Source: an uncultured Phycisphaeraceae bacterium (GTDB taxonomy: Bacteria > Planctomycetota > Phycisphaerae > Phycisphaerales > UBA1924). From it: DNA of 55,911 bases. The position numbers were made by a program, and so were the translations under genes. Position 1 is the first letter of the stretch, and every line of letters starts with the position of its first letter. The stretch is taken from contig CAZBXF010000003.1 of assembly GCA_964495635.1 (NCBI GenBank), positions 1 to 55,911 on the forward strand. The letters run 5' to 3'. The notes beneath the pieces are model-generated. The model did not search any database. It was not told where the DNA came from and saw only the letters and a program-made list of their open reading frames with translations. Shown here piece by piece: positions 13,747-36,935 of this stretch.

Positions 13747-13938
13747 TTAGAGGGCGCAGGAACCGGTGACGACGAACTGGGCGAGGATCTGGGCGTCGGT
13801 CAGGTCGGCGTTCTCGTCGCCGTTGAGGTCGCCGTCGAGCCAGTTGGCCTCGGGGGTGACAAGACCGACGAAGACCTGGGCCATGAGCTGGGCGTCGGTC
13901 AGGTCGACGTTCTCGTCCTGGTTGAAGTCGTAGTTGCA
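13747..13938 (-). repeat. copy A of the dispersed 192-nt coding repeat (63-aa C-terminal dockerin-like module + stop)
   Basis: Encodes CNYDFNQDENVDLTDAQLMAQVFVGLVTPEANWLDGDLNGDENADLTDAQILAQFVVTGSCAL*. Aligns without gaps to the six other copies. Confidence 0.9.
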
Positions 13939-16617
13939 GGGCGAGGGGCAGATGATGTCCAGGTCGGCCTGGGTGATCTGGCCGTTGCCGTCGACATCGC
14001 CGCGAGCCCAGCCGCCGGCGGTGCCGAGGTTGGCGGTGGCGATGGTGCAGTCGGCATCGTTGCGAACGCCGTCGAGGTTGACGTCGCCGAAGACGGTGCC
14101 GAGGATGCCGGTGACGAGCTCGGTCACGTCGGCCTGGTTGATGACGAGGTCGCCGGTGATGTCGGCCGAGAGGTCGGCGCCGACGGCCTCGGCGGTCACG
14201 TTCCAGTTCAGCGCGCCATCGGTGACGTTGGCGTTGCGGAGGAACTGCTTGGTGACGTAGTCGATGTCGGCGGCGTTGATGGTGTTGGCATCGGTGATCG
14301 ACGCGCCGGGGCCGCCGGTAGCGCCGATGGGAGCAAAGCCGGGGGTGATGTTGCCGGCGGTGTTGGCGACGTCGCCACGGGCATCACCAGCAACGTACGC
14401 GTTGCCGGTGGCCTTGGTGGTGCCGAAGAAGTTGGTGTTGCCGGTGAGCGTGGCCCAGGCGTTGTCGACGGCGATGAAGCCAGCCTTGCGGTTGAGCTGG
14501 CCGCCGGCGGGACCGCCGTTGCCGGTCATCGCGAGGCCGTCGGCGAAGTAGCGGACGTCCTCGGCGTTGAAGCTGCCATCGCCGTTGAAGTCGCCGAGGA
14601 CTTCGATGATGGCGTCGGTGCCGGGAGCGCCGGCGATGGTGCCGGTGCCGGCGGGCGGGTTCCAGTTGAAGGTCGACTCGCCGACCTGGCGCTGGCGGAA
14701 GGCCTTCATCATCTCGGTGGTGTCGGAGATGTTGCGGAGGCCGTTGCCGTCGAAGTCGCCGGCGGTGAGGTTGCGGAGGGTGAGGTTGCCGCCGTAGGAG
14801 ACGGTCGCGCCACCCTCGCTGATGTAGTTCGCGCCGTTGGCAACGCCGTCGGAGTAGACGGTGCCGGTGGCGCGGGTGGGGACGCCGCCGCCGACGTTGG
14901 CGGGGTTGAACTGGAGGAAGCGGGCGTTGTTGAGGACCGAGACGTTACGGACGGCGGTGCGGAGGTCGTTGTTGAAGGAGGGGTTGTTCACCATGTTGGT
15001 CGGGACCAGAGCACCATGGAGGTAGGGCTGGGCGCTGGTCAGGATGAAGACGGTCGCGGCGAGCTCACCGGGCATGAAGAGGGCGCCGGTCGCGTTGGGG
15101 TCGCTGATGTAGGCGGCGATGGAGCGGGTGATGTTGTTCAGGTACGCGGCCGCGGCGGGGTTGGCCATGCGCGGGTTGGTGTTGCCAGGATCGCCACCGA
15201 TCTCGGCCTGGTTGCGCGGGTCGCCGTAGGTGGCGAAGACCGCGGGACCACCGATCACATAGCCCTCAACGATGGGGGTCGTGGTGCCGGAGTTGCTCAG
15301 GTAGAGAACGTCGTCGATGAAGGGACGGCTGTAGGGGGCGGTGGCGCCGCCGGGGTAGGTGTCGGGCTGGATCGCGAGGATCTCGACACGGTTGCCGGAG
15401 AGCCAGGTGCCGGGAGCGGAGCCCTGCACGCCGCGCTCGGCGCCGGCGTATCCGATCGCGAGGCGGTGGTTGCGGACGGCGCGCTCCATCGCGGAGTTGC
15501 CACCCTTGTTGGAGGGGAGGAAGTTAGCGCCGAGGTTGTCGTTGGTCGCGGTGTTGTTCTGAGCGCCGACGTTCTCGCCGTTGCCGAAGGAGGGATCGAT
15601 GCCCTGGGTGTTGTTGAAGGCGTTGCGCGTGCCCGAGCCGACGTCGCGCGTGATCGCCATGATGTTCTCGCCGTTGTTCATGCGGCCCGTGATGAAGAGG
15701 TGGTTGATCTCGGTCATCTTGGCCTGCGAGTAGCCCGTGCCGTAGTTGGTGATGGCGGCGATGGGCGCGAAGGCGAAGGGCGTGTCGAAGATCGTGTCGC
15801 TGTTGGCGTTGGCGGGGATGCCGTCGTAGAGGTTGGCCGCGCCGCCGATCGAGCGGGGCGGATCCTGACGGACCAGCGTCGAAAGGACGCTCGTGCGGCC
15901 GGCGCCGGAGGTGCCGCCGGTCTTGTTCACCGAAACGACGGGGTTGCGGCCGTAGCCAGCCTGGAGGGGCGTGCGGATGGCGGAGGGGGTGCCGGCGGTG
16001 CCCTGGGTGGCCCAGGTGGTTGCGACGTCGAGCGGGGAGATGTCGATGCGGATGCCGCCGCCAGCGGGCGTGGGGCTCGCGGCGTAGAGGGCGCGGAGCG
16101 TCGTGGTGTTGCTCGTGACGGGGGCCGCGCCGGGGTTACCAGGGTTCGCGGGGCCCGTGAGAGGGTTGTTGGTCAGGTTGCCGTCGATGTAGCGGATGCT
16201 GTTGTAGAAGGCGAGGGTCGCGCCGGCGTTGCCGAGGGCGGCGATGCGGCGATTGGGGTCGGACTCACCCTCGGTCACGAAGACCTTGCCGTACTGGATC
16301 AGCTCGTTGAAGCCGTTGACGGAGCCCACGACGCGGTACTGGCTGGCCCAGATGTACAGTGGGTCGGAGCTCCAGCCCGGGGGAGCGACCTGCGGGGCGA
16401 GAGCCTGCACGCTCAGCACGGCGCCGCTGTTGAAGCGACCGGCGAGGCCATCGCCGTTCACGTCGATGAAGTCGTGGGCGGATGCGGGGCGGTTCAGGAA
16501 GTTCTCAAGGAGGGTGGCGCCCGAGATGTTGATGACGGAGGGCTGGGCAGCCGCGACACCGACGCAGGCGACCGAACCGGCCGCGGCAACGAGCATGGAC
16601 AGACGGGTGAGCTTCAT
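13747..16617 (-). CDS. secreted PstS-like (type-2 periplasmic-binding fold) protein with internal dockerin-type repeats and the shared C-terminal Cys-bracketed module
   Basis: ATG at 16617 (GGGAGA upstream) gives the signal MKLTRLSMLVAAAGSVACVGVAAAQPS. PstS-family-like segments are INISGATLLENFL and ITRDVGSGTRNAFNN. Dockerin/EF-hand loops are GDFDGNGLRNISD, GDFNGDGSFNAEDV, GDVNLDGVRNDAD and GDVDGNGQITQADL. It ends in CNYDFNQDENVDLTDAQ...GDLNGDENADLTDAQILAQFVVTGSCAL. Confidence 0.85.
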   Translation of the reverse strand: MKLTRLSMLVAAAGSVACVGVAAAQPSVINISGATLLENFLNRPASAHDFIDVNGDGLAGRFNSGAVLSVQALAPQVAPPGWSSDPLYIWASQYRVVGSVNGFNELIQYGKVFVTEGESDPNRRIAALGNAGATLAFYNSIRYIDGNLTNNPLTGPANPGNPGAAPVTSNTTTLRALYAASPTPAGGGIRIDISPLDVATTWATQGTAGTPSAIRTPLQAGYGRNPVVSVNKTGGTSGAGRTSVLSTLVRQDPPRSIGGAANLYDGIPANANSDTIFDTPFAFAPIAAITNYGTGYSQAKMTEINHLFITGRMNNGENIMAITRDVGSGTRNAFNNTQGIDPSFGNGENVGAQNNTATNDNLGANFLPSNKGGNSAMERAVRNHRLAIGYAGAERGVQGSAPGTWLSGNRVEILAIQPDTYPGGATAPYSRPFIDDVLYLSNSGTTTPIVEGYVIGGPAVFATYGDPRNQAEIGGDPGNTNPRMANPAAAAYLNNITRSIAAYISDPNATGALFMPGELAATVFILTSAQPYLHGALVPTNMVNNPSFNNDLRTAVRNVSVLNNARFLQFNPANVGGGVPTRATGTVYSDGVANGANYISEGGATVSYGGNLTLRNLTAGDFDGNGLRNISDTTEMMKAFRQRQVGESTFNWNPPAGTGTIAGAPGTDAIIEVLGDFNGDGSFNAEDVRYFADGLAMTGNGGPAGGQLNRKAGFIAVDNAWATLTGNTNFFGTTKATGNAYVAGDARGDVANTAGNITPGFAPIGATGGPGASITDANTINAADIDYVTKQFLRNANVTDGALNWNVTAEAVGADLSADITGDLVINQADVTELVTGILGTVFGDVNLDGVRNDADCTIATANLGTAGGWARGDVDGNGQITQADLDIICPSPCNYDFNQDENVDLTDAQLMAQVFVGLVTPEANWLDGDLNGDENADLTDAQILAQFVVTGSCAL

Positions 16618-16662
16618 GATCATCTCCCTATAGCTGGACACTGGACGAGCAACACATCTACT

Positions 16663-18827: not shown

Positions 18828-20705
18828 ATGCGTGTTGAGGTTCGGACCACCCTTCGTGCTCGAGGCCGGATCGCGGGCGGGCTGGCGTTCGCGGCTGGAA
18901 CCCTCGCCGCGTCGATGCTTCTGAGTGCCCCTGAGGCCCGTGCTCAGGAGGCGCTCCAGCGAACCACGCTCATCGAAGATGGTCACCAGCTGGGCGTGGG
19001 ACGCCTGGTTCGGGATCTGGACCTGCTCGCACTCGGCACCGGTGCCGGGGCGGCTACACCCGCCACGCGCCGGTTGTCACAGATTCTGGAGGGTCGTTCG
19101 CTGGTCGTGATCGCGATGACGAGCGTCACCTGCCCGCTCTCGAAGAAGTACGCGCCGCGGCTGGCGGCGATGGAGGACGAGCTGCGCCAGAGGGGCGTCG
19201 GCTTCGTTTATGTGAACACGGTCGAGGCCGAGTCTGAGTCTGACATGCGGCGGCAGGCCCGCGAGCAGGGCTGGGAGGGGCCATACCTGGCGGACCGGGA
19301 CCGCTCGGTCTCGGGCGGCCTGGGCGCGAGGACCACCACGGAGGTCTTCCTCATCGACGCATCACGCACGCTGCTGTACCGCGGCGCTCTGGACGATCAG
19401 TACGGCGTGGGGACGAGCCTGCCGGAGGCGCGGCGGCACTTCCTTCGCGATGCGATCGAGGCGGGGCTGGCGGGCGAGCGGGTACGGGTCCGCGCCACCT
19501 GGCCGCCGGGCTGCCTGCTCGATGAGGCCAAGGACGCGCCGAAGGCGCCGGCTAACGCCGCGCCCGAGCCGCTCACCTACCACGGTCGAGTCTCGAGGAT
19601 CCTGGCGCAGAGCTGCGTTGAGTGCCACCAGAACGGCGGCGAGGCACCTTTCTCGCTCGAGTCACTGGCCGATGTGCAGGGACGGATCCGGATGATCGAG
19701 GCGGTCGTGGGCGACCGGATCATGCCGCCATCTCACGGCCAGCCTTCGCCCTCTGCTCCCGCGCTCGATAATGCCAGCGGCGGGGCCCGATGGATGAACG
19801 ATGAGGATCGGTCGGATCTTCTTGAGTGGCTCGCTTCGGCGCGGCCGGTGGGCGAGCCGGGCGACGCGGTTCGGGCGCGGGTGGAGGCGCCGTCCGGCTC
19901 GTGGCGCATCGGTCCGCCTGAGGTCGTGCTCTTTGGCGCGCCGATGGCGCTCCCGGCGGTGGGGCCGCTGGTGCACAGGCGTGTGCTGATCCCGACCAAC
20001 TCGGAAGCGGATCTGTGGCTGAGTTCGGTGGAGGTGCGGCCCGTGGAGCGCGGCACCGTGCATCATGCGCTGCTGTGGATCGTGCCACCGGGCGGGCGGT
20101 TGCCGGGGCCGGGCGAAGTGCCGACGGACCTCGAGCTCTTCGCGACCTACTCACCGGGCGACAGCGTGGTGCGGCTTGCGCCGGGTCGGGGGCGGCGCGT
20201 GCCTGCGGGCTCGCTGCTTGTGGCTGATGCGTACTTGCGGCCGATGGGGCGCGAGATGAACGCCGGCCTGCGGATCGGGATGAGGACGCTTGTGGCAGCG
20301 CCCACAACGCCGCGCACGGCTCAGACGCTGGTCGCGTCGCTCCCAGAGATCGCGCCGGGGGCCCGGGATGTGCGGGCGAGTGCGGAGATGGTGCTCGATC
20401 GCACGACGCGGGTGGCGGCCCTCACGCCGTCGGCCTCGGCGCGGTGCGTGAGCCTGCGAGTGGAGGCGATGCTGCCGGATGGCTCCACGCGCGTGCTGCT
20501 GGATGCTCCGAAGCATGACTTCCGGTGGCAGATCCGGTCGGACTTTGCGGAGCCGGTGGAGCTTCCGGCCGGGACCCGTGTGAGGCTCACCGGAGTCTTC
20601 GACAACTCCGCGTCGGCACCGAACAACCCGGCCCCCAGCGAGGCGGCCCGGGGAGGCGCGGGTGCCGCGGAGGAGCGACTGCTCGTCTCGATCGAGTCGG
20701 AGTGA
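18828..20705 (+). CDS. secreted multidomain redox protein: thioredoxin-like (redoxin) domain + mono-haem c-type cytochrome motif + C-terminal beta-sandwich (Cu-monooxygenase-like, tentative)
   Basis: Signal-like N-terminus ...AFAAGTLAASMLLSAPEARAQE. Redoxin-like segment LVVIAMTSVTCPLSKKYAPRL...TEVFLIDASRTLLYRGALDDQYG. Haem-c motif SCVECHQNGGEAPFSL. A later VHHALLW segment gives only weak resemblance to copper type II monooxygenase folds. Confidence 0.8.
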   Translation: MRVEVRTTLRARGRIAGGLAFAAGTLAASMLLSAPEARAQEALQRTTLIEDGHQLGVGRLVRDLDLLALGTGAGAATPATRRLSQILEGRSLVVIAMTSVTCPLSKKYAPRLAAMEDELRQRGVGFVYVNTVEAESESDMRRQAREQGWEGPYLADRDRSVSGGLGARTTTEVFLIDASRTLLYRGALDDQYGVGTSLPEARRHFLRDAIEAGLAGERVRVRATWPPGCLLDEAKDAPKAPANAAPEPLTYHGRVSRILAQSCVECHQNGGEAPFSLESLADVQGRIRMIEAVVGDRIMPPSHGQPSPSAPALDNASGGARWMNDEDRSDLLEWLASARPVGEPGDAVRARVEAPSGSWRIGPPEVVLFGAPMALPAVGPLVHRRVLIPTNSEADLWLSSVEVRPVERGTVHHALLWIVPPGGRLPGPGEVPTDLELFATYSPGDSVVRLAPGRGRRVPAGSLLVADAYLRPMGREMNAGLRIGMRTLVAAPTTPRTAQTLVASLPEIAPGARDVRASAEMVLDRTTRVAALTPSASARCVSLRVEAMLPDGSTRVLLDAPKHDFRWQIRSDFAEPVELPAGTRVRLTGVFDNSASAPNNPAPSEAARGGAGAAEERLLVSIESE

Positions 20706-20713: not shown

Positions 20714-20905
20714 CTACACGCCGCAGCTGCCTGAGACGACGAAGGTGGCGATCAGCTGGGCGTCACCAAGGTCCACGTTCTCATCGTTGTTGACGTCGCC
20801 GCTGAGCCAGGAGGCTTCGGGCGTGACAAGGCCGACGACCGTGCGGGCCAGATCCTGGGCATCGGCGAGGTCGATGTTCTGGTCCTGGTTGAAGTCGTAG
20901 TCGCA
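20714..20905 (-). repeat. copy B of the 192-nt coding repeat (C-terminal dockerin-like module)
   Basis: Encodes CDYDFNQDQNIDLADAQDLARTVVGLVTPEASWLSGDVNNDENVDLGDAQLIATFVVSGSCGV*. This is the most divergent of the seven copies. Confidence 0.9.
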
Positions 20906-22642
20906 TGGCGAGGGGCATCCCATCGATCCGCAGAAGAAGGGGATTCGTGCGACCGTCGAGCGCGCCTGACCCTGAGGCCCTGCGGGATCGTTCACGATCC
21001 ACTGCGCGAAGAGGATCTGCCCGCCCCGGACCGTGCCGCCGGAGAGGGGCCAGTGGACGGTGCCGACGCCCTGACCGTTGCCACTGCCCTCAGCGAGGAC
21101 AGTGACGGGCAGGATGCGCTCGGGGTTGATGCGCCCGTTCACGGGTGGCTGCGAGGAGAGGGCGAGCTGCGCCGTGGCGCCGCCGAGGGCGCCATCGAGG
21201 CCGATGCGATAGTCGAGGTTGCCGATCATCGGCGGCGAAGACACGATGATGCGCGGGATCAGCCCGCCGGAGCCCGCGATGCCCGCGCCGCCCTGCTGGG
21301 GCGGCACGATCGTGGCCTGATTCTCGGGGCGCTGGGCCGCGAGGGTCGGACGATCGAAGGGGAAGGTCTGGGCCGCGACGCGCGGATCAAGCAGGCCGCC
21401 ACGCAGGAAGGCCTCGATGTCCGCCGCGGGGGGAGGCGGCACGTTCACGTTGAGCATGATCGGGTCGCGGTTGTCGGGGAACTGCGGCGCCGCGCCGGGC
21501 GCGCGGGCGTAGAAGCGGATGACCTCGGTCAGCGGCGTTGAGCCCGGGGGCGTTGCGCCGGGATTGAACTGGCCGTTGTGCATGAACGTGGTCTTGAGGC
21601 CGACGTTGCGCAGGCCCGGGACCTTGAACTTGCCGCGGTCCGCGGCGTTGCCCGTGGTGAGCTGGAGGCCGAGGTCTTCCGCTGGCGGACGCAGGCCGAT
21701 GTTGCGGAAGCCGTTGCCGGTAAAGAGCGGCGGGATGTGGCACTGATTGCAGTTGCTGGCCTGGAAGGCGTTCCAGCCGCGGGTCTGCGCGGGCGTCAGC
21801 GCGGCGGGATTGCCCGCGATGAACGAATCCCACGGCGTCTGGTTCGCGATCAGCGTGCGCTGGTACGTCGCGAGGGCGAAGGCGATGCGGGTGGGCGTGA
21901 TGGCGCCATCACCAAACGCTCGCTGGAAGAGCTCGGGGTAGCCGGGCTGATCGGCGAGGGCGGCGGCGACATCGGCGGGGTGGTTGGTCGCGAGGTCGAG
22001 CGGGCGCGAGCGCTCAAGGCGCGAGGCAACCTGGGCCCAGTCGATCCCATCGTGGGCCATCTCGACCGTGCTGAGTGGCGGCTGGACACTCTGACTCTCG
22101 AGCGCGCCGCCGACGGGGATGATGACGGAGTTGGTCGTCGGGTCGCGGAACTCGCCGCGGGCGCGGCCGTCCCAGAAGAGGACGGGCGCGAAGGCGGCGT
22201 TGATGTTGGAGTTGGCCGCGCGGTCGGTGACCTGCGGATTGAGCGCGAAGAGCGCATCGCGGAGGTAGTCGTTGTCGGCATCGGAGCGGATCACGCCGGG
22301 CGAGGCGATGCGATCATCGCCGTTGTTCAGCAGTCCATCGGGTCCGGGGTGGCGGGCCTGGCGCGGATCAGCGCCGGCGCGGTTGGGCTGGTGGCACGAG
22401 CCACAGGACATCGTCAGGCTCGTCGAGAGCTGCTCATCCCAGAAGAGGATCTTGCCAAGCACGGCCTTCTCGGGCGTGATGGGGTTCTGCGGCGGAGCCT
22501 GCACCTGCGGGAAGGGCTGCGCCGAGGCCGTCGTGACGCTGCCCGACACGACGGAGAGGATCGCGGCCGTCAGCAGGACCGCCGAGGTGGAGCGGATCGG
22601 AAGAGGGTGACCGACCAATGAAGGGAACCGAAGCGCGCTCAT
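20714..22642 (-). CDS. di-haem cytochrome c peroxidase (CCP/MauG family) fused to the shared C-terminal dockerin-like module
   Basis: Two CxxCH motifs (SCGSCHQPNRAG and NCNQCHIPPLF) and the conserved FKVPGLRNVGLKTTFMHNGQF. Signal MSALRF...VVSGSVTTASAQP from the ATG at 22642 (GGAGA 7 nt upstream); the ATG at 22669 is an alternative. Ends in CDYDFNQDQNIDLADAQ...VSGSCGV. Confidence 0.9.
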   Translation of the reverse strand: MSALRFPSLVGHPLPIRSTSAVLLTAAILSVVSGSVTTASAQPFPQVQAPPQNPITPEKAVLGKILFWDEQLSTSLTMSCGSCHQPNRAGADPRQARHPGPDGLLNNGDDRIASPGVIRSDADNDYLRDALFALNPQVTDRAANSNINAAFAPVLFWDGRARGEFRDPTTNSVIIPVGGALESQSVQPPLSTVEMAHDGIDWAQVASRLERSRPLDLATNHPADVAAALADQPGYPELFQRAFGDGAITPTRIAFALATYQRTLIANQTPWDSFIAGNPAALTPAQTRGWNAFQASNCNQCHIPPLFTGNGFRNIGLRPPAEDLGLQLTTGNAADRGKFKVPGLRNVGLKTTFMHNGQFNPGATPPGSTPLTEVIRFYARAPGAAPQFPDNRDPIMLNVNVPPPPAADIEAFLRGGLLDPRVAAQTFPFDRPTLAAQRPENQATIVPPQQGGAGIAGSGGLIPRIIVSSPPMIGNLDYRIGLDGALGGATAQLALSSQPPVNGRINPERILPVTVLAEGSGNGQGVGTVHWPLSGGTVRGGQILFAQWIVNDPAGPQGQARSTVARIPFFCGSMGCPSPCDYDFNQDQNIDLADAQDLARTVVGLVTPEASWLSGDVNNDENVDLGDAQLIATFVVSGSCGV

Positions 22643-22775
22643 GCTGGATCTCCGTGCGGCCCCTCTCATGGGTGGGAAAACGCCGCGGCAGATCCGGTAT
22701 TGCGGACAAGGACGAAACAGTCTCGCGGGCGAGGGAGGTTCAGGGGAAGCACGGAGGGGAGGCGGGGAATTCGAA

Positions 22776-22861: not shown

Positions 22862-23053
22862 TCACACGCCGCAGGTTCCCCTCACGACGTACGCCGCGAG
22901 GAGCTGGGCGTCGGTGAGGTCGGCGTTCTCGTCGTTGTTGAGGTCGCCGTCGAGCCAGTTGGCTTCGGGTGTGAGCGAGCCGACGAAGACCTGGGCCATC
23001 TGCTGCGCATCGAGGAGATCGATGTTCTCGTCGCGGTTGAAGTCGTAGTCGCA
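22862..23053 (-). repeat. copy C of the 192-nt coding repeat (C-terminal dockerin-like module)
   Basis: Encodes CDYDFNRDENIDLLDAQQMAQVFVGSLTPEANWLDGDLNNDENADLTDAQLLAAYVVRGTCGV*. Confidence 0.9.
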
Positions 23054-25453: not shown

Positions 25454-25530
25454 GGTGATACCTCTCTGGATTGAGTGATCCTTCCCGGATTCGGGTGAGC
25501 CACACTCCCCGACAGTTCGGGAGTCTATCA

Positions 25531-25574: not shown

Positions 25575-25671
25575 TTTGTGTTTCTCTTGGTTTCCACCTC
25601 AGTCCCTGTTGGTTTTGCTGCTAAACTGCCACGCTGCGGCCCCGAGGGCCGATCCGGAGCATCACTGGTCC

Positions 25672-26940: not shown

Positions 26941-26947
26941 GAGAGCC

Positions 26948-28978: not shown

Positions 28979-29052
28979 CGCTGAGTCCTTCGTGCTTTGG
29001 GGGAAGTCCATGGGGACGAGCTTGGGGAAGACACACCAACAGGCAACCGGAC

Positions 29053-29244
29053 TCACACGCCGCAGTTGCCCGTGACGACGAACGAGGCCAGCAGCTGCGC
29101 GTCGGTCAGGTCTGCGTTCTCGTCGCCATTGAGGTCGCCATCGAGCCAGCCCGCCTCGGGTGGGATCAGGCCGACGAAGACCTGGGCCATCTGCTGAGCG
29201 TCGAGCAGATCGACGTTCTCGTCCTGGTTGAAGTCGTAGTCGCA
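29053..29244 (-). repeat. copy E of the 192-nt coding repeat (C-terminal dockerin-like module)
   Basis: Encodes CDYDFNQDENVDLLDAQQMAQVFVGLIPPEAGWLDGDLNGDENADLTDAQLLASFVVTGNCGV*. Confidence 0.9.
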
Positions 29245-32200
29245 GGGGTTGCCGCCCTGGAACTCGAAGGCTCCGATGTCGAGGCCGCCGCCCGCGACGC
29301 GGGCCGCGCGGGACAGATCGAGCGTGATCTGAGGGGGCAGCGACGCGGCGTCGCCAGCGTTGATGGAGGTTGACGAGGCAGTCAGGGCGTAGTCACCCGA
29401 AGCCGCGTTCGCGAAGGCCGGATCATCATCGATGTTCCCAAGGCCGAGGTAGCCGCCCGCGATGTTGGAGTAGGTCACGTCGACGGTGGGCTGAGTGCCG
29501 CAGAAGTTCTGGATGTTGGCCAGACCGGTGCTGGCTCGGACGATGGTGTTGCTGACCGAGCTCTCGGCGACGGCATCGCATGATCCGAAGACCACGCCGC
29601 CGGCGGCATTGCCGACGATTGTGGAAGCCGAGAGAACGTGCTTGCGAGGTGTGCCGCCGATGCCATCGAGCATGATGCCGCCGCCGCGATCGGTGGCGGT
29701 GTTGCCGGCGATGAGCATGTTGGTGAGCGTGGCGTCGAGCGAGTCGGACCAGAGCCCGCCGCCGCGCCCGGCGGTGTTGCCAATCAGGCGGATGCGATCG
29801 AGCCGGGTGGGCCCCTGGCGGCTTACGAAGATGCCGCCGCCGCGGGCGTTGTTGGCGTTACCGCCGGGGGCAGGGGCCGCGATGCCGCCGATGCAGGTGA
29901 TGTCCTCGAGGATCGCGGTCGAGGTCGTCCCGCCGCCAGAGAGGTGCAGGCCAGCGCCGACGCGGGCGCGGTTGTTGACGAAGGTGAGGTTGCGGGCGAT
30001 GACGTTGAGACCATCAAGTCGGGCGCCGCCACCATCGCCAAAGCTGTCGGAGGCGGTGGGGATCGCCTGACAGTCGGTGAAGGTGCTCTCCTCGACGGTG
30101 AGGGTGCCGGTGCTGATGGCCCAGAGTCCGCCGCCGATCTTCGAGCGGCAGTTGTTGAATGTCAGGCGTCGCGCCGTGGCGGTGGTGCCGCTGAGGCGCA
30201 GGCCGCCGACATCGCCGAAGGAGCCCGAAGCGGTCGGGATTCCGAAGCAGTTCGTGAAGGTCGAGTCTTCGACCAGCGACGACGTGCTCCCTCCGACGGC
30301 CAGGCCGCCGACGAACTTCGCCGAGCAGTCGGAGACTGTGACGTTGCGAACGACCGTGATGCCGCCACCGATATCGCCCGCGCCGTAGTCGCCGCCGTTG
30401 TTGTTGACGGGCGTCGCGACGAGGTTGCGGAAGATGGAGTCCTGGATCGTCGTCGTGGACGTGGTGCTGGTGCCGGCGGTCTTGATGCCCGCGACGTTGC
30501 GTGCGGTGCAGTTCTCGACCAGAACGCGGTTCAGGAGGATGGTGTTGGCCGTGACGTTGGCCGCGGCCCAGTCGCCCCCCTGATTGTCGGGCGTCACCGC
30601 TGCGTGCAGGTTTCGGAACTGCACGTCGGTGAAGGAGACGGTGGCGTCGGAGCGGGCGGGGAAGATGATGCCCGCGCCCTGGCGCGACGTCGCGTCGCGG
30701 AAGATCGTGTTCGAGACGATCAGCCCGCCACCCAGCTGCTCGTTCCAGATGTGGGCACCGGCGTTGGGAGCGATGTTGTTGGCAAAGTCTGAATTCTCGA
30801 TGGTGAGAACGACACGACCGCTCATGCCGATGGCGCCGCCCTGCTGGTTGGTGGGGCCGAGCGTCTCGTTGCCGGTAAAGGTGCAGTTGCGGATCAGCGC
30901 GTTGCGGGCCGTGCTCTGGAGTGCTTCCAGCCAGATGCCGGCCCCGCGGTTGTTGGTGGCGGTGTTGTTCTGGAAGGTGCAGTCGATGAACGAGACGTTG
31001 CTCCGGCGGACGCGCACCGCGCCGCCCTCGTTGTCGGACGTGCTGCCGGAGTTCACGTTGTTGTTCCGGAAGGTGCAGCCGTCGAAGGTCGTGAGCTGTG
31101 CACCGCTGTTGACGCGCACCGCGCCGCTCCCACCGCTGAGCACGAAGCTCCCCGACGTGGCCCCCACCGCGCGGTTGCCTTCGAAGAGACAGTCCGTGAC
31201 CGTCGTCTGGTGCGTGGTGGCCAGTGCGCCCGCGACCGCCGCGGTGTTGTTGCGGAAGATCGTGTTCTCGATGATGGAGCCGCCTGGGGGCGCGTTCGTG
31301 CTGCCCTGCGCGATGGCCCCGCCGATGCCGCCATTGGCAACGTTGCCCTCAAAGAGGGCGTTGCGCACCACAAACGCACCTGCGGCGGCGGTCTCGACGG
31401 CCGCGTTGCCGCTTGCGGTGTTGCCGGTGAAGGTCGTGCCATCGATGATGATCGAGGCGGTGTTGCCGGTGCCGATGCCCTTGATCGCGGAGCCGTTGCC
31501 GCGCGTGACGCTGTTGGTCGCGAACGAGCCCCCGGTGATCGTGAGCGTCGCGCTGTCGCGGATCGCGATGGCGCCGCCGCCGCCGAAGGTCGTGCTGACA
31601 GAGCCCGTGGAGGTGGTCGTGGCAGAGTTGCCGGTGAAAGTGCTCGAAGTGATGGTCACGATGCTCGTGCCACTGGCACCGATCGCGCCGCCGCCAAGTT
31701 CGACTGACTGATTCGCCTCAAAGGTCGAGCCCGAGACGATCAGGGTCCCATCCACCACCGAGATGGCGCCACCGAGCCCGGCGCCGGTCGTGATGACCGC
31801 CGCGGCGTTGTTGCGGAAGGTCGACGAGACAATCTCAACGGTCCCGCCGACGACGGACAAGCCCGCTCCCGCGCCGTCGAAGCTCACGTTCCCCTCGACG
31901 ATGCAACCCTCGATCCGCAGCGGCGTCGCCGTGGTAGAGATGCCCGCTCCCGTCCCGCTCGAGCCGAGGTTCCCGCCGCTGATGGTCAGTCCCTGGAGCG
32001 TGACGCCGCCGCCGATCGTGCTCATGGTGATGACCGGACCGGTCGTGCCGCCGCCACTGATCGTCGTCTGGGCCGCCCCTGCCGTGCCGCGGATCACAAG
32101 CGCTTTGCCGAGCAGGTCGAGCTGCTCGTTGTACGTGCCCGGCGCGACCAGGATCAGATCGCCCGGACTCGCGGCGGCGATCGCCCCCTGGATCGTCGGC

Positions 32201-32322
32201 ACATCCGCCGGAACGTTGATCGTCGCCGCGGATGCCGCCGTTCCGACCAGCATCGTGAGCAGCGTTGCCGACAGCGGGAGGACCGAAGAGGAGCGCGTAC
32301 AGAGTCCGGTTCGACACGACAT
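29053..32322 (-). CDS. large secreted right-handed parallel beta-helix protein with Pmp-like (GGA[IV] / FxxN) repeats and the shared C-terminal dockerin-like module
   Basis: The ATG at 32322 (GGAGG 7 nt upstream) gives a signal ending ...LLTMLVGTAASAATINV. More than 10 alternating motifs are present, such as GGAISVV, GGGAIGAS, GGGAIAIR, GGAIAQGS, GGAVRVR, GGAIGMSG, GGGLWAIS, GGGIFVS and GGGIMLDG. These alternate with FRNNAA, FEANQS, FTGNSA, FATNSV, FTGNTA, FEGNVA, FRNNTA, FQNNTA, FANNIA and FVNNRA. Ends in CDYDFNQDENVDLLDAQ...VVTGNCGV. Confidence 0.85.
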   Translation of the reverse strand: MSCRTGLCTRSSSVLPLSATLLTMLVGTAASAATINVPADVPTIQGAIAAASPGDLILVAPGTYNEQLDLLGKALVIRGTAGAAQTTISGGGTTGPVITMSTIGGGVTLQGLTISGGNLGSSGTGAGISTTATPLRIEGCIVEGNVSFDGAGAGLSVVGGTVEIVSSTFRNNAAAVITTGAGLGGAISVVDGTLIVSGSTFEANQSVELGGGAIGASGTSIVTITSSTFTGNSATTTSTGSVSTTFGGGGAIAIRDSATLTITGGSFATNSVTRGNGSAIKGIGTGNTASIIIDGTTFTGNTASGNAAVETAAAGAFVVRNALFEGNVANGGIGGAIAQGSTNAPPGGSIIENTIFRNNTAAVAGALATTHQTTVTDCLFEGNRAVGATSGSFVLSGGSGAVRVNSGAQLTTFDGCTFRNNNVNSGSTSDNEGGAVRVRRSNVSFIDCTFQNNTATNNRGAGIWLEALQSTARNALIRNCTFTGNETLGPTNQQGGAIGMSGRVVLTIENSDFANNIAPNAGAHIWNEQLGGGLIVSNTIFRDATSRQGAGIIFPARSDATVSFTDVQFRNLHAAVTPDNQGGDWAAANVTANTILLNRVLVENCTARNVAGIKTAGTSTTSTTTIQDSIFRNLVATPVNNNGGDYGAGDIGGGITVVRNVTVSDCSAKFVGGLAVGGSTSSLVEDSTFTNCFGIPTASGSFGDVGGLRLSGTTATARRLTFNNCRSKIGGGLWAISTGTLTVEESTFTDCQAIPTASDSFGDGGGARLDGLNVIARNLTFVNNRARVGAGLHLSGGGTTSTAILEDITCIGGIAAPAPGGNANNARGGGIFVSRQGPTRLDRIRLIGNTAGRGGGLWSDSLDATLTNMLIAGNTATDRGGGIMLDGIGGTPRKHVLSASTIVGNAAGGVVFGSCDAVAESSVSNTIVRASTGLANIQNFCGTQPTVDVTYSNIAGGYLGLGNIDDDPAFANAASGDYALTASSTSINAGDAASLPPQITLDLSRAARVAGGGLDIGAFEFQGGNPCDYDFNQDENVDLLDAQQMAQVFVGLIPPEAGWLDGDLNGDENADLTDAQLLASFVVTGNCGV

Positions 32323-32413
32323 GAAAGAGCCTCCGGGACTGCTTGAAATGGGGACCGGGTGGGGCCGACGGATCACTTTCGGTAACCTACCGGGGGGAGC
32401 GGTGCCTGTCCAG

Positions 32414-32433
32414 CAAAATGTTCAAACATTTTG
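32414..32433. promoter_or_regulatory. AT-rich perfect palindrome in the divergent promoter between 29053..32322 and 32478..33725 (operator candidate)
   Basis: CAAAATGTT-CA-AACATTTTG has 9-bp perfect arms. It lies 45 nt upstream of the ATG at 32478 and 92 nt upstream of the ATG at 32322. It is the most AT-rich stretch in this intergenic region. Confidence 0.35.
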
Positions 32434-32477
32434 GTGAACCCGACCAGAGCCTTTGGTATGCTTGCGCCATTCAGTCG

Positions 32478-33725
32478 ATGGAGAGGCCGCACATGCCCGT
32501 GAAGACCCCTGCGAGTATCGCGACGGACCCACCCGAGACCGACTTCACCGAGGAGGCGCGGCATGTCCTCGCGCTCCTGCGCCGAGCCACGGGCGCGCTG
32601 ATCGGGTCGCTCGCGGATGCGGATCGGCCCGTCCGCCTGGCCGACCGCCTGTCGATCGATCGGAGCCTGGCGTGGAAGGTCTGGCAGGTGGGGCACGGTG
32701 AGGCCGCGTGCCCTTCGGCGGCACACATTCCCGGGTCGGCGGGCTTCGAGCACTTTCTCCAGGCTGCGGGCACGGCGGGCGCGCCGCTCTCGCTGGTGGA
32801 ACGGGCGCGATCGGCCTTCCAGGCGTTGGAAGCGCTCCTCCGGCAGCACGCCGGCGACCGCACCTCCGGCGCCATGATGCTCGGCTCACTCTCCGACGAG
32901 GGACGGGACCGGCTCGAGCGTGCCGTGCGACGCGGCGGATTCAGGGCGCAGAGTCACTTCCTGGGCGTGCAGACGCGTGTGCTGTATCAGGCCGATCTCC
33001 TTATTCCCACACAGGCCGGATTCTGGCCGGATGTGGCGCGTCTGCGAGGACACTTCGGACTTCAGCGCACCCGCGCCAATGTTCCCTGGATCATCGCGAG
33101 GAGCACGCCCGTCAACGCCGACGGACCCATCTGGGAACACACGCGCCAGCCGCTCGAGCCTGGCGCTGCGGCCGAAGGAGAGTCGCCGCTGCTGGTGAAT
33201 CGCTTCTGCTCGTCGCCACGCCCGCGCGTCAACCGGCGCGTGCTGGTGGGTGTCACCGTGGAAGATGAGCTTGAACCCGGACCGATCGGGCAGACGGGCG
33301 CGGTTGATGTCGTCACGGGCGAACTCGTGCGCGTGAAGGAGCAGGCCGACACACTCACCAACGCCGTGACGATGGCCGTCTCGACGCCTTGCGAGCACCT
33401 CGTGCATGATGTGCTCATCGTGCAGGGCAGGCCGGGTGCCGCGGCGGGGCCGGTGGAGCTGAGGCTCCACGCGACCGTGCACGGCGACCTTCCCTACCTG
33501 CGCGGGCGCGAGTCGTACGCCGTTCCGGTCATGGAGCAGTTTGTCGATCTCGGCCCCGTGAGCGAGGCTCCCGCGTACCCCTCGCTCCCGCGCCACGCCG
33601 AGATGCTGGACTGGCTCTTGGAACGCACGGGCAACGACCCGGCGAAGGTTCGGCTCTACAGACTGACGATGCGCATGCCGCCACTCCCGAGCTGCGCCGC
33701 GGCGATCTACCGCATCGGCGGCTGA
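32478..33725 (+). CDS. uncharacterised cytoplasmic protein, paralog 2 (same family as 25672..26940)
   Basis: 415 aa from the ATG at 32478 (alternative ATG at 32493), with no signal or TM. Collinear similarity to paralog 1 along the whole length; see that entry. Confidence 0.75.
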   Translation: MERPHMPVKTPASIATDPPETDFTEEARHVLALLRRATGALIGSLADADRPVRLADRLSIDRSLAWKVWQVGHGEAACPSAAHIPGSAGFEHFLQAAGTAGAPLSLVERARSAFQALEALLRQHAGDRTSGAMMLGSLSDEGRDRLERAVRRGGFRAQSHFLGVQTRVLYQADLLIPTQAGFWPDVARLRGHFGLQRTRANVPWIIARSTPVNADGPIWEHTRQPLEPGAAAEGESPLLVNRFCSSPRPRVNRRVLVGVTVEDELEPGPIGQTGAVDVVTGELVRVKEQADTLTNAVTMAVSTPCEHLVHDVLIVQGRPGAAAGPVELRLHATVHGDLPYLRGRESYAVPVMEQFVDLGPVSEAPAYPSLPRHAEMLDWLLERTGNDPAKVRLYRLTMRMPPLPSCAAAIYRIGG

Positions 33726-33851
33726 GGCTCGATGCGCGTGGATACTCCCGACACTCCGCGCCTGTTCTGACTGCGATTGAGTGGCGACGAACAAGCACGT
33801 GGGCGAGCGCACGCACGCCTCGACACGAGCGCGGACCCAGAGCCGTCATCA

Positions 33852-34043
33852 TCACACGCCGCAGTTGCCGCTCACGACGTACGCCGCGAGGAGCTGCGCG
33901 TCCGTCAGGTCGGCGTTCTCGTCGTTGTTGAGGTCACCATCGAGCCAGTTCGCGCCGGGCGTGAGGAGCCCGACGAAGACCTGAGCCATCTGCTGCGCGT
34001 CGAGGAGATCGATGTTCTCATCCTGGTTGTAGTCGTAGTCGCA
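33852..34043 (-). repeat. copy F of the 192-nt coding repeat (C-terminal dockerin-like module)
   Basis: Encodes CDYDYNQDENIDLLDAQQMAQVFVGLLTPGANWLDGDLNNDENADLTDAQLLAAYVVSGNCGV*. By hand count it has about 13 mismatches to copy D over 192 nt. Confidence 0.9.
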
Positions 34044-35291
34044 GGAGTTGCCGCAGCGTTCAAGGGTTGCGATGCCGCGGGCGTCGACGGGGCCGATGGA
34101 GACGAAGCTGCCGCCGATGACGAGATCGCCGCGCCACTCGCCCATGCCGAAGGCGCTGGGCCAGTTGCCGCTGGTGGTGCGGTTGGGCGTGGATGAGTCG
34201 CGCAGGCTGCCGTCGACGGACTCCCAGGTGTTGCCGACGAGCTTGCCGAAGTTGTTGATGCCCGGGAAGGCCGTGCCGGAGAAGTAGAGGGAGGTGTCGC
34301 TGCCGTTGTTCCAGGAGCGCAGCGCGGTGACGCGGCCGGTGCCGAGGCTCTGGCCGACGAAGGCCCAGTTGCTGCCATTCCAGCGCGCGGTGTGGCGCGT
34401 GCCGCTGACACCGGTGATGCCGAAGGACGTGCCGCCGACGTAGAGCGCGGGACCAGTGCCGGGATTGTGGATCGTCATGGAGTCGAGCTGGCGGAGCGAA
34501 TCACCCAGGCGCGTGAGGCCGAAGCCGATGCGCTGCCAGGTGCCATTGCGGAACCGCGCGGCGAGGGCGGTGTTCTGGCCGTCGATCGTGTCGAAGCGGC
34601 CTACGGCGTAGAGCGCGGGGCCCGTGCCATCATCGAAGATCTCAAGGTCGGCGATGTAGGGGCTGAAGACGCCCGCGATCCCGACGCCCGTGCCCACCGC
34701 CGACCACGACTCACCATCGAACTGCGCGATGCCGCCGAAGGGCACGGTCGAGCCGCCCGCGACAAACAGGCGCGGGCCCTGGCCAAGGTCCCCCACCACC
34801 ATGTCCCAGATCGCCGTGCCCTGCGGCACGTTGAGGGAGAGGGACTGCCACTGCGACCCATTCCACGCGGCGATGGACTGCGTGTTCGCGACGCCGCCGG
34901 CGTTGGCGAAGAGACCCGCGACAATCAGGCGCGTGCCGGAGCCGTCGTTGAAGGGAACCATGCTCGTGAGGAACCCGTTGGTGAAGCCAAGCCCAAGGCC
35001 GGTGCCGAGGCGCTCCCAGTCGTTGGTCACGGGGTTGTACCGCGCGAGGAGCTGGCTCACGAGCCCGCCGATCTCGCTGAAGGAGCCGCCGACGTAGAGC
35101 TTCTCACCCGAGCCGTCGTCGTACGCAAGGATCGGATCGGCGTAGCCGTCCTGAAGGCCGGGCGTGCCAATGAAGCCGCTGTACGTCGGCGGACACTGGG
35201 CCGAGGCCGCGGGCACACAAATCCCGGCAGCGCTGATGCAGATGAGGCCAGAGAGCAGCGAAGCGGTAGCGCGATGGGCGTGATTCTTCAT
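33852..35291 (-). CDS. secreted 7-bladed beta-propeller-like repeat protein with the shared C-terminal dockerin-like module
   Basis: Signal MKNHAHRATASLLSGLICISAAGICVPAASAQ. Seven repeats of the type L[YFI]V[GA]G.F..IGG.......A[RW]....W...G, for example LYVGGSFSEIGGLVSQLLARYNPVTNDWERLG and LYAVGRFDTIDGQNTALAARFRNGTWQRIG. Ends in CDYDYNQDENIDLLDAQ...VVSGNCGV. Confidence 0.8.
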   Translation of the reverse strand: MKNHAHRATASLLSGLICISAAGICVPAASAQCPPTYSGFIGTPGLQDGYADPILAYDDGSGEKLYVGGSFSEIGGLVSQLLARYNPVTNDWERLGTGLGLGFTNGFLTSMVPFNDGSGTRLIVAGLFANAGGVANTQSIAAWNGSQWQSLSLNVPQGTAIWDMVVGDLGQGPRLFVAGGSTVPFGGIAQFDGESWSAVGTGVGIAGVFSPYIADLEIFDDGTGPALYAVGRFDTIDGQNTALAARFRNGTWQRIGFGLTRLGDSLRQLDSMTIHNPGTGPALYVGGTSFGITGVSGTRHTARWNGSNWAFVGQSLGTGRVTALRSWNNGSDTSLYFSGTAFPGINNFGKLVGNTWESVDGSLRDSSTPNRTTSGNWPSAFGMGEWRGDLVIGGSFVSIGPVDARGIATLERCGNSCDYDYNQDENIDLLDAQQMAQVFVGLLTPGANWLDGDLNNDENADLTDAQLLAAYVVSGNCGV

Positions 35292-35453
35292 GCGTGCAAG
35301 ATACCACGCGGCACACGGATTGTGAAGGGCTGCTTCGATGTTTCTCCCCCACTTCTCCCCCTCTGCGGGCGTCGCCGCGGTCTGCTCGGAGGCAGGAAGC
35401 GAGGCTGATCCGATTGAGCTTGTAGAGACAAGGCGACCGTCGGCCCCGAAACA

Positions 35454-35645
35454 CTAGATCCCGCACGTACCGCTTACGACAAACGCCGCGAGCAGCTGCG
35501 CATCCGTCAGGTCTGCATTCTCATCGCCATTCAGATCACCATCAAGCCAACCTGCCTCGGGCGCGAGAATCCCCACAAAAACCTGGGCCATTTGCTGCGC
35601 GTCGAGCAGGTCCACGTTCTCATCGCGGTTGAAGTCGTACTCGCA
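35454..35645 (-). repeat. copy G of the 192-nt coding repeat (C-terminal dockerin-like module)
   Basis: Encodes CEYDFNRDENVDLLDAQQMAQVFVGILAPEAGWLDGDLNGDENADLTDAQLLAAFVVSGTCGI*. Confidence 0.9.
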
Positions 35646-36935
35646 CGCGATCCGCTCCGTGCGATACGCGCGGACGCTGTTGGCGCCTGTCGATGCGATG
35701 ATGAGCGTTCCGTCCGTGCCGATTGGCGGTGCGCCCTGGTTGAGGTTTGGCACTGGGATGGACCAGCGTTCTGTGAGGTCGGGGTTGAAGGAGAAGACGC
35801 GGCCGTTTGCGAAGGCTCCCGTTGACACGAAGAGCACGCCGCGGCTGTCGACCGCCATGCGGATCTGGAAGAAGTCGGCCTGGATCGGTGCGGACTCGTT
35901 CAGCACGGCGCCGGACTCTGGATCAAGGCGCTGGAGGCGTGCCGTGTTGGGCGTGCCGGTGCCGATGAGGTTGTAGATCGAGCCATCGAGCCCGACGCCC
36001 CACTCCGCCGCGGCACCGCCGCCGAGCGATGGCACGCGCCAGTTCTGTGTGAAGCCGCTGCCGCTGTCGGCGAATGAATAGAGGAAGTCGACCGCCGCGT
36101 TATTCTGCACGCGCGGCAGGTACACATTTCCCGACGGATCCACGTACGGCGTGTTCTGGATCAGGAAGCCCGACATCAGCGGGCTCTGATACTGGAACGC
36201 GCCGGTGTCGATGTTGAAGCGCTTGATGACCTGCCCACCCGCGACGCTGTCGGCCGCGTAGACCGCGCTGCCGTTCGCGGCGGCGCCGCAGTTGCCCGAG
36301 ACCGAGCACTGCCGAGCAGTACGCCACACGCGCGTGCCGGTCGCTGAATCAAACCTCCAGATGAAGCGGAACGAACCGATGATCGGATCACCATCGGGCG
36401 CGAAGACCATGCCGTCGTACGCGCCGGCGTCGATCTCTTCCGTCGTCGTCCAGAGGACCGCGCCCGTCGCGGCATCGAGGCAGTAGAGACGCGCCGACGA
36501 ACTCGCTCCGTTGCCCGAACGCGCGGCGTAGAGCCTGCCGTTGTTCACGCCGCCGATCCAGGTCGTCCAGTCGCCCGTCTCGAATGGGATGTTGAAGCGC
36601 CACAGCTCAACCCCGGTGTCGAGGTCGAGCGCGACGATCGGTGAAGCGTTGCTGGAGGGCTCGGGCGGGAAGCCCGTCTGGCGGACCATGAACACTCGCC
36701 GCCCTTCGATCACCGGCTGCCAGGCGATCACCGACGAGGGGGCACCCTGCCAGAGAAGCGTCGAGGCGTCTGCGGCGTCGGGCCCCTGCACCGCAACCTG
36801 CCCATTTCGCTGGGCGTTGCCGCCGGAGTTGGACCACGGCTGATCCTGAGCCGCCGCCGACTGCGGCAGCATTCCAGCCGCCACTACAAGGCCCAAAACG
36901 GAGAGGGACCACGCGCAAGAACGGCCGCACAGCAT
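35454..36935 (-). CDS. secreted PQQ-like/BamB-like beta-propeller repeat protein (paralog of 22862..24409) with the shared C-terminal dockerin-like module
   Basis: ATG at 36935 with AGGAGG upstream gives the signal MLCGRSCAWSLSVLGLVVAAGMLPQSAAAQ. It is collinear with 22862..24409, for example WQPVIEGRRVFMVRQ / WNPVVEGRRVFIVRQ, GDWTTWIGGVNNGRLYAARSGNG / GDWTTWIAGVKNGRLYASRSGNG and LYCLDAATGAVLW / VYCLDAATGAILW. Ends in CEYDFNRDENVDLLDAQ...VVSGTCGI. Confidence 0.85.
   Translation of the reverse strand: MLCGRSCAWSLSVLGLVVAAGMLPQSAAAQDQPWSNSGGNAQRNGQVAVQGPDAADASTLLWQGAPSSVIAWQPVIEGRRVFMVRQTGFPPEPSSNASPIVALDLDTGVELWRFNIPFETGDWTTWIGGVNNGRLYAARSGNGASSSARLYCLDAATGAVLWTTTEEIDAGAYDGMVFAPDGDPIIGSFRFIWRFDSATGTRVWRTARQCSVSGNCGAAANGSAVYAADSVAGGQVIKRFNIDTGAFQYQSPLMSGFLIQNTPYVDPSGNVYLPRVQNNAAVDFLYSFADSGSGFTQNWRVPSLGGGAAAEWGVGLDGSIYNLIGTGTPNTARLQRLDPESGAVLNESAPIQADFFQIRMAVDSRGVLFVSTGAFANGRVFSFNPDLTERWSIPVPNLNQGAPPIGTDGTLIIASTGANSVRAYRTERIACEYDFNRDENVDLLDAQQMAQVFVGILAPEAGWLDGDLNGDENADLTDAQLLAAFVVSGTCGI

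Follow-up and report, generated by a model that had tools for sequence, protein, structure and literature searches.

The Locus and Its Seven Carrier Genes

The DNA analysed here (the window) comprises 55,911 nucleotides, positions 1 to 55,911 of contig CAZBXF010000003.1 (assembly GCA_964495635.1), from an uncultured Phycisphaeraceae bacterium, and has a GC content of 64–70%. Seven open reading frames (ORFs) on its minus strand, with stops at 13747, 20714, 22862, 26948, 29053, 33852 and 35454, end in the same ungapped segment of 63 residues. This segment, bracketed by two cysteines and containing two putative calcium loops, is called the module below, and the genes that encode it are called carriers. 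Their positions in the window are as follows.

13747–16623, minus strand: carrier 1 (~956–958 aa); signal peptide, large body without family match, several EF-hand/dockerin-like repeats, canonical dockerin, 63-aa module
13750–13938, minus strand: carrier 1 module, the 63-aa Cys-bracketed dockerin module
20714–22669, minus strand: carrier 2; signal peptide, di-haem cytochrome c peroxidase (CCP_MauG / MbnH-like), module
20717–20905, minus strand: carrier 2 module, the copy that diverges most from the other six (15.3 bits in Pfam)
22862–24409, minus strand: carrier 3; signal peptide, PQQ_2-type beta-propeller, module; paralogue of carrier 7
22865–23053, minus strand: carrier 3 module
26948–28978, minus strand: carrier 4; signal peptide, weak galactose-binding-like domain (GBD_T9SS_assoc), module
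26951–27139, minus strand: carrier 4 module, one boundary of the 8.3-kb segment missing in the metagenome-assembled genome (MAG) EUL_253
29053–32322, minus strand: carrier 5 (1107-aa ORF); signal peptide, right-handed beta-helix (Beta_helix), choice-of-anchor Q domain, module
29056–29244, minus strand: carrier 5 module
33852–35291, minus strand: carrier 6; signal peptide, Rax2/Kelch/DUF5122-like beta-propeller, module
33855–34043, minus strand: carrier 6 module, lead sequence of the alignments for the structure model
35454–36935, minus strand: carrier 7; signal peptide, PQQ_2-type beta-propeller, module
35457–35645, minus strand: carrier 7 module, the other boundary of the 8.3-kb segment missing in EUL_253

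All seven carriers begin with a signal-peptide-like N-terminus behind a plausible ATG, as the first-pass annotation of the locus had proposed, and in the wider family signal peptides were called heuristically in 55 of 59 complete carriers. The bodies, which the same annotation described as seven unrelated proteins, mostly do differ; the exception is the pair of carriers 3 and 7, which are paralogous PQQ-type propellers. Pfam and NCBIfam bear out the assignments of the di-haem peroxidase, the two PQQ propellers, the beta-helix, the further propeller (Rax2/Kelch-like) and the weak galactose-binding-like domain. The 'PstS-like' fold suggested for the body of carrier 1 was not recovered, and no match outside the dockerin region of this protein was returned by Pfam, NCBIfam or PDB searches.

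Sequence and Conservation of the Module

The consensus of the module is CDYDFNQDENVDLLDAQQMAQVFVGLLTPEANWLDGDLNxDENADLTDAQLLAAFVVSGxCGV. Its presence at the C-terminus of seven genes is confirmed both by translation of the ORFs and by a hidden Markov model (HMM) built from the seven copies, which, run against all six reading frames of the window, recovers these seven and no others (E 1e-38 to 1e-42; the next match has E > 5). Pairwise identity among these copies is 63–92% for amino acids (mean ~79%) and 65–93% for nucleotides. The tail had been called near-invariant. This is somewhat too strong, in view of the mean identity above and of a mean of 77% (minimum 41%) over 122 distinct copies. In the window 34 of the 63 columns are fixed, among them both cysteines and all Ca-ligand positions.

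The differences among the seven DNA copies are distributed over codon positions 1/2/3 as 195/155/455. This excess at third positions, together with the divergence among the copies, indicates that they are old, are maintained under purifying selection and do not represent collapsed assembly repeats.

The two halves of the module (segments 4–24 and 37–57) are identical at 12 of 21 positions in the consensus, and each has Asp or Asn at loop positions 1, 3, 5, 9 and 12. The corresponding Ca ligands, D4/N6/D8/D12/D15 and D37/N39/D41/D45/D48, are conserved to at least 97% in the 122 distinct copies. Loop position 4 is Q/R in loop 1 and G/N/S in loop 2, and position 6 is E in both loops, so the earlier remark that the loops are non-canonical is correct: these two positions are mostly Gln/Gly/Asn and Glu, not the canonical glycines. 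Divergent family members such as P0081–P0083 keep Gly at position 6, and Glu is therefore probably derived there within dockerins. On both helices (the DL-x-DAQ motifs) the surface positions show strong conservation in 122 or more distinct copies, whose bodies are unrelated.

The bracketing cysteines and the terminal placement are equally constant in the wider family. Among 137 complete copies, every one is strictly C-terminal, and module position 1 lies 63 residues from the stop in 130 copies and 62 in the other 7. Cys occupies position 1 in 132 of the 137, and four of the five exceptions have a Cys one or two residues away. The C-terminal Cys is present in all 137 and is followed by one or two residues (CGV, CPL, CGL, CAL, CP and others). 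One module stands alone: at L073 10001–10261 (P0159) an 86-aa ORF consists of the module only, with an in-frame stop just upstream, no signal peptide and a substituted loop 1 (…DEIVNLTDARQ…). It has the appearance of a carrier gene in decay.

In published structural work the two ends of type I dockerins are in contact and form an 'intramolecular clasp', which in Doc48S involves stacking of Tyr5 on Pro66. Since dockerin termini meet in this way, a Cys1–Cys61 disulfide tying the ends of the module together is plausible and can reasonably be inferred by analogy. According to a reference cited in PMC12484212, disulfides of cohesin–dockerin pairs have so far been introduced by engineering only. The module may be a natural dockerin stabilized by a terminal disulfide, and could serve in designer scaffolds.

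Assignment to the Dockerins

A dockerin-like nature of the tail, with a helix behind each of two Ca loops, had been suggested from the loop spacing. Pfam, a profile search of the PDB and structure prediction concur on this point. PF00404 (Dockerin_1; gathering cut-off 22.9 bits) matches every module of the window, although the module scores of 15–24 bits straddle the cut-off. The scores of the carriers are 46.2 (carrier 1), 24.4, 24.2, 22.7, 22.2, 22.1 and 15.3 bits; the high value for carrier 1 is due to a canonical dockerin immediately before its module, which gives a second matched stretch. Dockerin_1 also matches 70 of 77 related carriers from two MAGs at E ≤ 1e-3, and PF00404 is already assigned to many module copies in the precomputed annotation of several sources. 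A search of all PDB sequences with the seven-copy profile returned dockerins only.

The structure of the module alone was modelled with AlphaFold2 from a 26-sequence alignment, which gave a predicted local distance difference test score (pLDDT) of 88.5, as compared with 53.5 for an alignment of the seven window copies alone. The model has the dockerin fold, with helices at 13–23 and 46–58. When it was compared with the PDB by Foldseek, ranks 1–33 were all dockerins, with TM-scores of ~0.6–0.76 and a root-mean-square deviation of ~2 Å over ~60 columns for the closest.

On the agreement of Pfam, the PDB profile search, and AlphaFold2 with Foldseek, the module is a dockerin, type I-like by modelled fold and by sequence, and does not form a new category outside dockerins. 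The suggestion of a dedicated tag of a new kind is accordingly not upheld in that form. The novelty lies in the subfamily, which is bracketed by Cys, always terminal and poor in loop glycines, reaches ~60 copies per genome in a narrow Phycisphaerales lineage, and is attached to non-cellulolytic cargo. No description of such a subfamily was found in the searchable literature. Both loops would be expected to bind Ca, given the conserved ligand positions.

Beside the module of carrier 1 lies a second dockerin. The segment 13939–14200 (minus strand) encodes a canonical Gly-containing dockerin (GDVNLDG…GDVDGNGQITQADLD) that abuts the Cys-bracketed module, and more EF-hand-like repeats are found upstream of it. 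Carrier 1 is a natural 'double dockerin', an arrangement which suggests that the two dockerin types are not redundant.

Distribution, Copy Number and Recombination

The HMM of the seven copies was used to count carriers beyond the window. Against 1.84 billion representative proteins it gave 392 matches at E ≤ 1e-3, of which ~90 are high-scoring and full-length (roughly ≥75 bits) and nearly all end a few residues from the C-terminus. The next lower scores belong to some fragments, followed by multi-repeat dockerins of the ordinary kind (from ~66 bits down). Two peptide patterns, which bound the sensitivity of the scan, were run against 185,579 species-representative genomes and occurred in two only, both of them Phycisphaerales MAGs (EUL_253 and Co_metawrap_953). 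The fetched loci of these two MAGs contain at least 58 and at least 34 distinct module copies. In 241 million metagenome records, 66 close matches (at least 59% identity) come from eight sample accessions, seven from JGI and one an ENA 'microbial mat' contig. Where these proteins are named by the source, the name is 'hypothetical protein'. Judged by these sequence searches, the tail is a narrow, expanded, lineage-specific dockerin subfamily.

A different form of tail was seen on a metagenome contig of another lineage (L141 ~300–760). It is a C-terminal Cys-rich array of dockerin-like loops (…DINQDCSVNQAD…, …DLNRDCRIEQTD…) ending …AGC-stop. C-terminal tails that resemble dockerins and are stabilized by Cys may have a wider distribution, in forms other than the module.

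The window DNA is 82–92% identical to syntenic loci of EUL_253, which on sequence grounds is assigned to a species related to that of the window. In one syntenic locus (L013 3001–3189) a single chimeric module stands where the window has two. The 5' two-thirds of the chimera match the module of carrier 7, and its last ~30 nt and the downstream DNA match carrier 4. The intervening 8.3 kb (27139–35461), containing the body of carrier 4, carrier 5, one gene of a family described below (famX) and carrier 6, are absent from the EUL_253 locus. The chimera and the missing segment point to module copies as sites of homologous recombination at which cargo genes are added or removed. Such recombination would be one way for the carrier repertoire to evolve.

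Cargo and Anchor Position

The bodies of 77 carriers fall into 49 Pfam families, including subtilases (Peptidase_S8), PKD/Ig, PPC, lamin-tail domains (LTD), P-domains, propellers, multicopper oxidase and GDPD; some carriers pair Reprolysin_4 with a P-domain (P_proprotein). Glycoside hydrolase families are essentially absent from the listed top cargo families, apart from one alpha-amylase-like NCBIfam match. In the NCBIfam census of carriers choice_anch_X is the commonest model (five carriers), and choice_anch_B occurs in one. Further NCBIfam matches are HAF and ELWxxDGT repeats and homologues of 'myxosortase-dependent' and 'LPXTG-anchored' peptidases. HAF repeats are often associated with PEP-CTERM.

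By the published definition, 'choice-of-anchor' domains belong to surface proteins whose C-terminal anchor differs from one bacterium to another. Families of this kind found among the carriers bear PEP-CTERM, LPXTG or T9SS anchors elsewhere. The choice-of-anchor Q domain of carrier 5 occupies residues 995–1040 of the 1107-aa ORF, and five residues separate its end from the module. The module thus occupies the anchor slot behind choice-of-anchor domains, which agrees with the anchor-tag-like behaviour proposed for it earlier. This Phycisphaerales lineage appears to have adopted the dockerin module as its anchor of choice, and the carriers would accordingly be located at the cell surface.

Between two dockerin-tailed genes of the window, at 24554–25549 (minus strand), lies the gene for a secreted protein whose tail (…PAPASLGLLCLGAVAGLRRRR) is of the classical PEP-CTERM type. 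Its position amid the carriers indicates that the organism uses at least two kinds of C-terminal anchor and that the dockerin tail is a separate class.

Comparison with Known Systems

Type I cellulosomal dockerins (PF00404; C. thermocellum Doc48S, 2MTE; Xyn10B, 1OHZ; A. cellulolyticus Cel5, 5NRK) resemble the module in several respects. They are ~60–70 aa long, consist of a duplicated Ca-loop and helix with Asp/Asn at loop positions 1, 3, 5, 9 and 12, and are found C-terminally on secreted proteins, in many near-identical copies per genome on unrelated bodies; the predicted fold of the module superposes on theirs with TM-scores of up to 0.76. The module differs from them in the lack of canonical Gly at loop positions 4 and 6, in the Cys pair at its ends (a putative covalent clasp in place of Tyr–Pro stacking), in its invariable location at the extreme C-terminus and in its borderline Pfam scores. 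It also differs in the host, a planctomycete of Gram-negative type, and in the cargo, which is mostly not glycoside hydrolases. A cellulosome is recognized by a multi-cohesin scaffoldin and dockerin-bearing glycoside hydrolases; in the sampled DNA no scaffoldin was found, and there is essentially no glycoside hydrolase cargo.

The closest published idea is the 'planctosome' hypothesis, put forward for the Nemodlikiaceae (class Phycisphaerae) by Andrei et al. (2019, ISME J; PMC6461901). That paper reports cohesin and dockerin proteins for the Nemodlikiaceae, and its model rests on identified cohesins and on reprolysin, P-domain and LTD types. Both systems belong to the class Phycisphaerae and involve non-cellulosomal dockerin-bearing secreted proteins, with overlapping repertoires of M12B reprolysin-like peptidases, proprotein-convertase P-domains and lamin-tail domains. 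They differ in scale: the CAZy table of the paper gives 0–6 dockerins and 0–1 cohesins per Nemodlikiaceae MAG, as against at least 58 modules in one MAG here. They differ also in that no cohesin was found here in ~1 Mb of related DNA. A Cys-bracketed subfamily is not mentioned in the passages of the paper that were consulted. Another precedent in the class is a two-cohesin scaffoldin of Limihaloglobus.

The first-pass annotation likened the tail to PEP-CTERM/exosortase, LPXTG/sortase and the C-terminal domain (CTD) of the type IX secretion system (T9SS). All of these are strictly C-terminal and occur on dozens of unrelated surface proteins per genome, as does the module. Unlike PEP-CTERM, LPXTG and GlyGly-CTERM signals, the module has no hydrophobic stretch, transmembrane helix, basic tail, PEP motif or LPXTG motif, and ends in C-x-x. 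The T9SS CTD is a beta-sandwich of ~80–100 aa, whereas two helices and Ca loops are predicted for the module; T9SS is not known from Planctomycetota. NCBIfam sorting-signal models gave zero matches on the window carriers, and no sortase-like gene was recognized near carriers.

The nearest relatives outside the subfamily were met in proteins of another lineage. A database-wide search with a four-sequence cohesin profile returned four proteins, the sole labelled one being from Gemmatimonadota. In P0088, P0134, P0135 and P0145 (and P0220–P0223) an N-terminal cohesin directly precedes dockerin repeats with the motif DIIDAQQIARFSVGL. Pfam cohesin is confirmed for P0135 and marginal for P0134, and the model misses two of the four proteins P0088, P0134, P0135 and P0145. 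P0223, a homologue of these cohesin–dockerin fusions, is labelled Gemmatimonadota by its source. The helix motif of the fusions, D-[IL]-[IL]-D-A-Q-Q-[IM]-A-[RQ]-x-x-V-G-L, nearly equals DLLDAQQMAQVFVGL of the module. Their dockerins differ from it in being internal, straight after the N-terminal cohesin, in having canonical Gly or Asp in the loops and in lacking a bracketing Cys pair; on the module profile they score ~45–76 bits, compared with at least ~75 (mostly >100) for family members.

Proposed Mechanism and Search for a Receptor

The reading preferred here, which is considered moderately probable, is that the carriers are exported by Sec, that their tails fold with Ca and are closed by a disulfide clasp, and that the two-helix face docks onto a shared cohesin-type receptor of the envelope, by which dozens of proteins are displayed. 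Each carrier would leave the cytoplasm through Sec by means of its signal peptide. Outside the cytoplasm the tail would fold into two Ca-binding loop–helix units (D4/N6/D8/D12/D15 and D37/N39/D41/D45/D48), and a Cys1–Cys61 disulfide would join its N- and C-termini as a covalent version of the intramolecular clasp of cellulosomal dockerins. The near-identical helix surfaces (DL-x-DAQ motifs) could then dock non-covalently on one shared receptor. This would most probably be a cohesin-type module on a scaffold protein of the cell envelope, encoded elsewhere in the genome. In this way each genome would place over 50 different proteins (enzymes, propellers, adhesin-like proteins) on the cell surface, in a non-cellulosomal display system resembling the 'planctosome'.

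The modules average 77% identity on bodies of 49 Pfam families, both helix faces are highly conserved whatever the body, and the module stands in the anchor slot; together these points argue for a common binding partner. That this partner would be a cohesin is suggested by the dockerin fold and by the cohesin-linked nearest relatives.

Several results weigh against this display on a cohesin-type receptor. Four of the seven window modules fall below the Pfam Dockerin_1 cut-off, and the module loops are without the canonical Gly at positions 4 and 6; Gly at these positions is typical of dockerins and is not strictly defining. Pfam detected no cohesin among the 27 ORFs of the window, nor in 20 large or repetitive ORFs that lie beside modules or carry them in related loci. 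Cohesin was likewise not found by jackhmmer or hhalign in 626 ORFs (277,000 residues, ~1 Mb of related DNA), where the best hhalign probability was 2%. The hhalign probe was a four-sequence profile of Gemmatimonadota-type cohesins, and jackhmmer was started from three cohesin seeds, one of them a CipA cohesin.

For the window, the Pfam and profile searches agree with the statement of the first-pass annotation that no cohesin is recognizable. As evidence that the receptor is not a cohesin, the negative result is weak, because only a fraction of every genome was searched, scaffoldins may be encoded far from their cargo, the probe profile derived from Gemmatimonadota-type cohesins and the Pfam cohesin model misses some divergent cohesins. 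A screen of internal repeats for scaffoldin-like neighbours found such repeats almost only within carriers or in antisense ORFs.

Alternative Explanations

The most novel alternative is that the dockerin has been repurposed as a new self-contained 'choice of anchor', a Ca module locked by a disulfide, either with a non-cohesin receptor (e.g., a lineage-specific outer-membrane or envelope component) or read by dedicated export or attachment machinery. This is regarded as fairly unlikely. If true, it would constitute a previously unrecognized route of surface display, used by ~60 proteins per cell in a bacterium of Gram-negative type.

Anchoring of the module in a Ca-dependent manner to a ligand other than cohesin (an envelope glycan, an S-layer-like protein or another dockerin in Doc–Doc contact), in cells where no cohesin exists, is a doubtful explanation. 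It would account for the undetected cohesin in the sampled DNA and for loops and helix surfaces unlike those of cellulosomal dockerins, and many bacteria reportedly have dockerins but no recognizable cohesins. The closest outside relatives of the module, however, are dockerins with the DAQQ helix, some of which (in P0088, P0134, P0135 and P0145) stand beside a cohesin in the same protein, and the high conservation of both helix faces fits a protein–protein interface of the cohesin–dockerin type.

The module could also be an export or sorting signal that is read by dedicated translocation or processing machinery of the outer membrane, after which the tail would be removed or covalently attached, with a function like that of the T9SS CTD. 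In its favour are the strictly terminal location, with the last Cys always one or two residues from the end, the dozens of carriers per genome, the place in the sorting-domain slot of choice-of-anchor families, and the lack of a cohesin in ~1 Mb of sampled related DNA. Against these points stand the alpha-helical dockerin fold, which is not the beta-sandwich of the T9SS CTD, and the absence of a hydrophobic helix or basic cluster as in PEP-CTERM/LPXTG, of which 24554–25549 provides a real PEP-CTERM example for comparison. No candidate machinery gene recurs beside the carriers in the fetched loci, and dockerins are not known to serve as secretion signals. This explanation is improbable, slightly more so than binding to a non-cohesin ligand.

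Still less probable is a passive role, in which the module is a Ca-binding, disulfide-stabilized C-terminal cap that was spread by domain shuffling and stabilizes its carrier without targeting it. Passive spread is conceivable because module copies recombine and thereby move or delete gene segments, and a module-only relic ORF exists (L073/P0159). The conservation of the helix surfaces in at least 122 distinct copies on unrelated bodies would be hard to explain without a common partner, though, and the strict C-terminal placement and the replacement of known anchors in choice-of-anchor families also speak against a mere cap.

An assembly or annotation artefact (collapsed repeats, chimeric contigs) is hardly credible as the origin of the shared 3' ends. 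Repeats of 189 nt with up to 93% identity could in principle lead short-read assemblers astray, and the chimeric module in one related MAG might be taken as a sign of this. Yet the seven DNA copies differ by 7–35%, chiefly at third positions of codons, and every copy continues the reading frame of its body. Related copies are present in separate assemblies from NCBI, JGI and ENA, and the same architecture recurs in three independent MAG assemblies as well as in JGI and ENA metagenomes.

Neighbouring Genes

Two genes of the window, at 25471–26940 and 32343–33725 (plus strand), belong to a paralogous family of ~440–555 aa, here called famX, which is also found in L009, L013, L037, L046, L048, L110 and L112. 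In the fetched loci, all of which are centred on carriers, famX repeatedly adjoins carrier genes, mostly in convergent orientation. Pfam and PDB searches gave no match for it, and its N-terminus has a helix-turn-helix (HTH)-like motif (…L-x-W-K/R-V/L…). FamX was considered as the partner of the module and rejected on account of this motif and of the lack of a signal peptide; judging by its sequence features, it may be a lineage-specific regulator.

Adjoining carrier 2, the gene at 18828–20705 (plus strand) encodes a secreted protein of 625 aa in which a thioredoxin-like domain (Redoxin/AhpC-TSA) and a CxxCH motif are recognized. The two genes also lie side by side in EUL_253 (L060), and homologues of the Redoxin protein occur in the carrier loci L038 and L132 as well. 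The protein could serve as a redox partner of the peroxidase or could take part in disulfide chemistry. Since its conserved neighbour is the di-haem peroxidase carrier, the former role is as likely as that of a dedicated disulfide catalyst.

Further along the minus strand, 46173–51594 contains a tripartite efflux/export operon composed of an OEP outer-membrane factor, an HlyD-type adaptor and two ORFs whose translations resemble, by eye, an ABC ATPase and a permease of the MacB/FtsX type. At 8096–10525 (minus strand) an 809-aa ORF without Pfam match has a signal peptide, a Gly/Tyr/Ser-rich low-complexity C-terminal third and then a basic tail. Planctomycete hallmarks are found close by, namely a DUF1559/N-methyl protein and a weak PSD5 match.

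Significance

If display on a shared cohesin-type receptor holds, the carriers may represent the largest known dockerin repertoire outside the cellulosome-producing Firmicutes. They belong to an uncultured planctomycete lineage, and their cargo is made up not of cellulases but of peptidases, oxidoreductases, propellers and adhesin-like proteins. The 63-aa profile provides a clean marker of the secreted and surface proteome of this lineage, as well as a bait for the receptor. Dockerin-based display, if this reading is true, can organize the surface proteome in general in a bacterium with an outer membrane.

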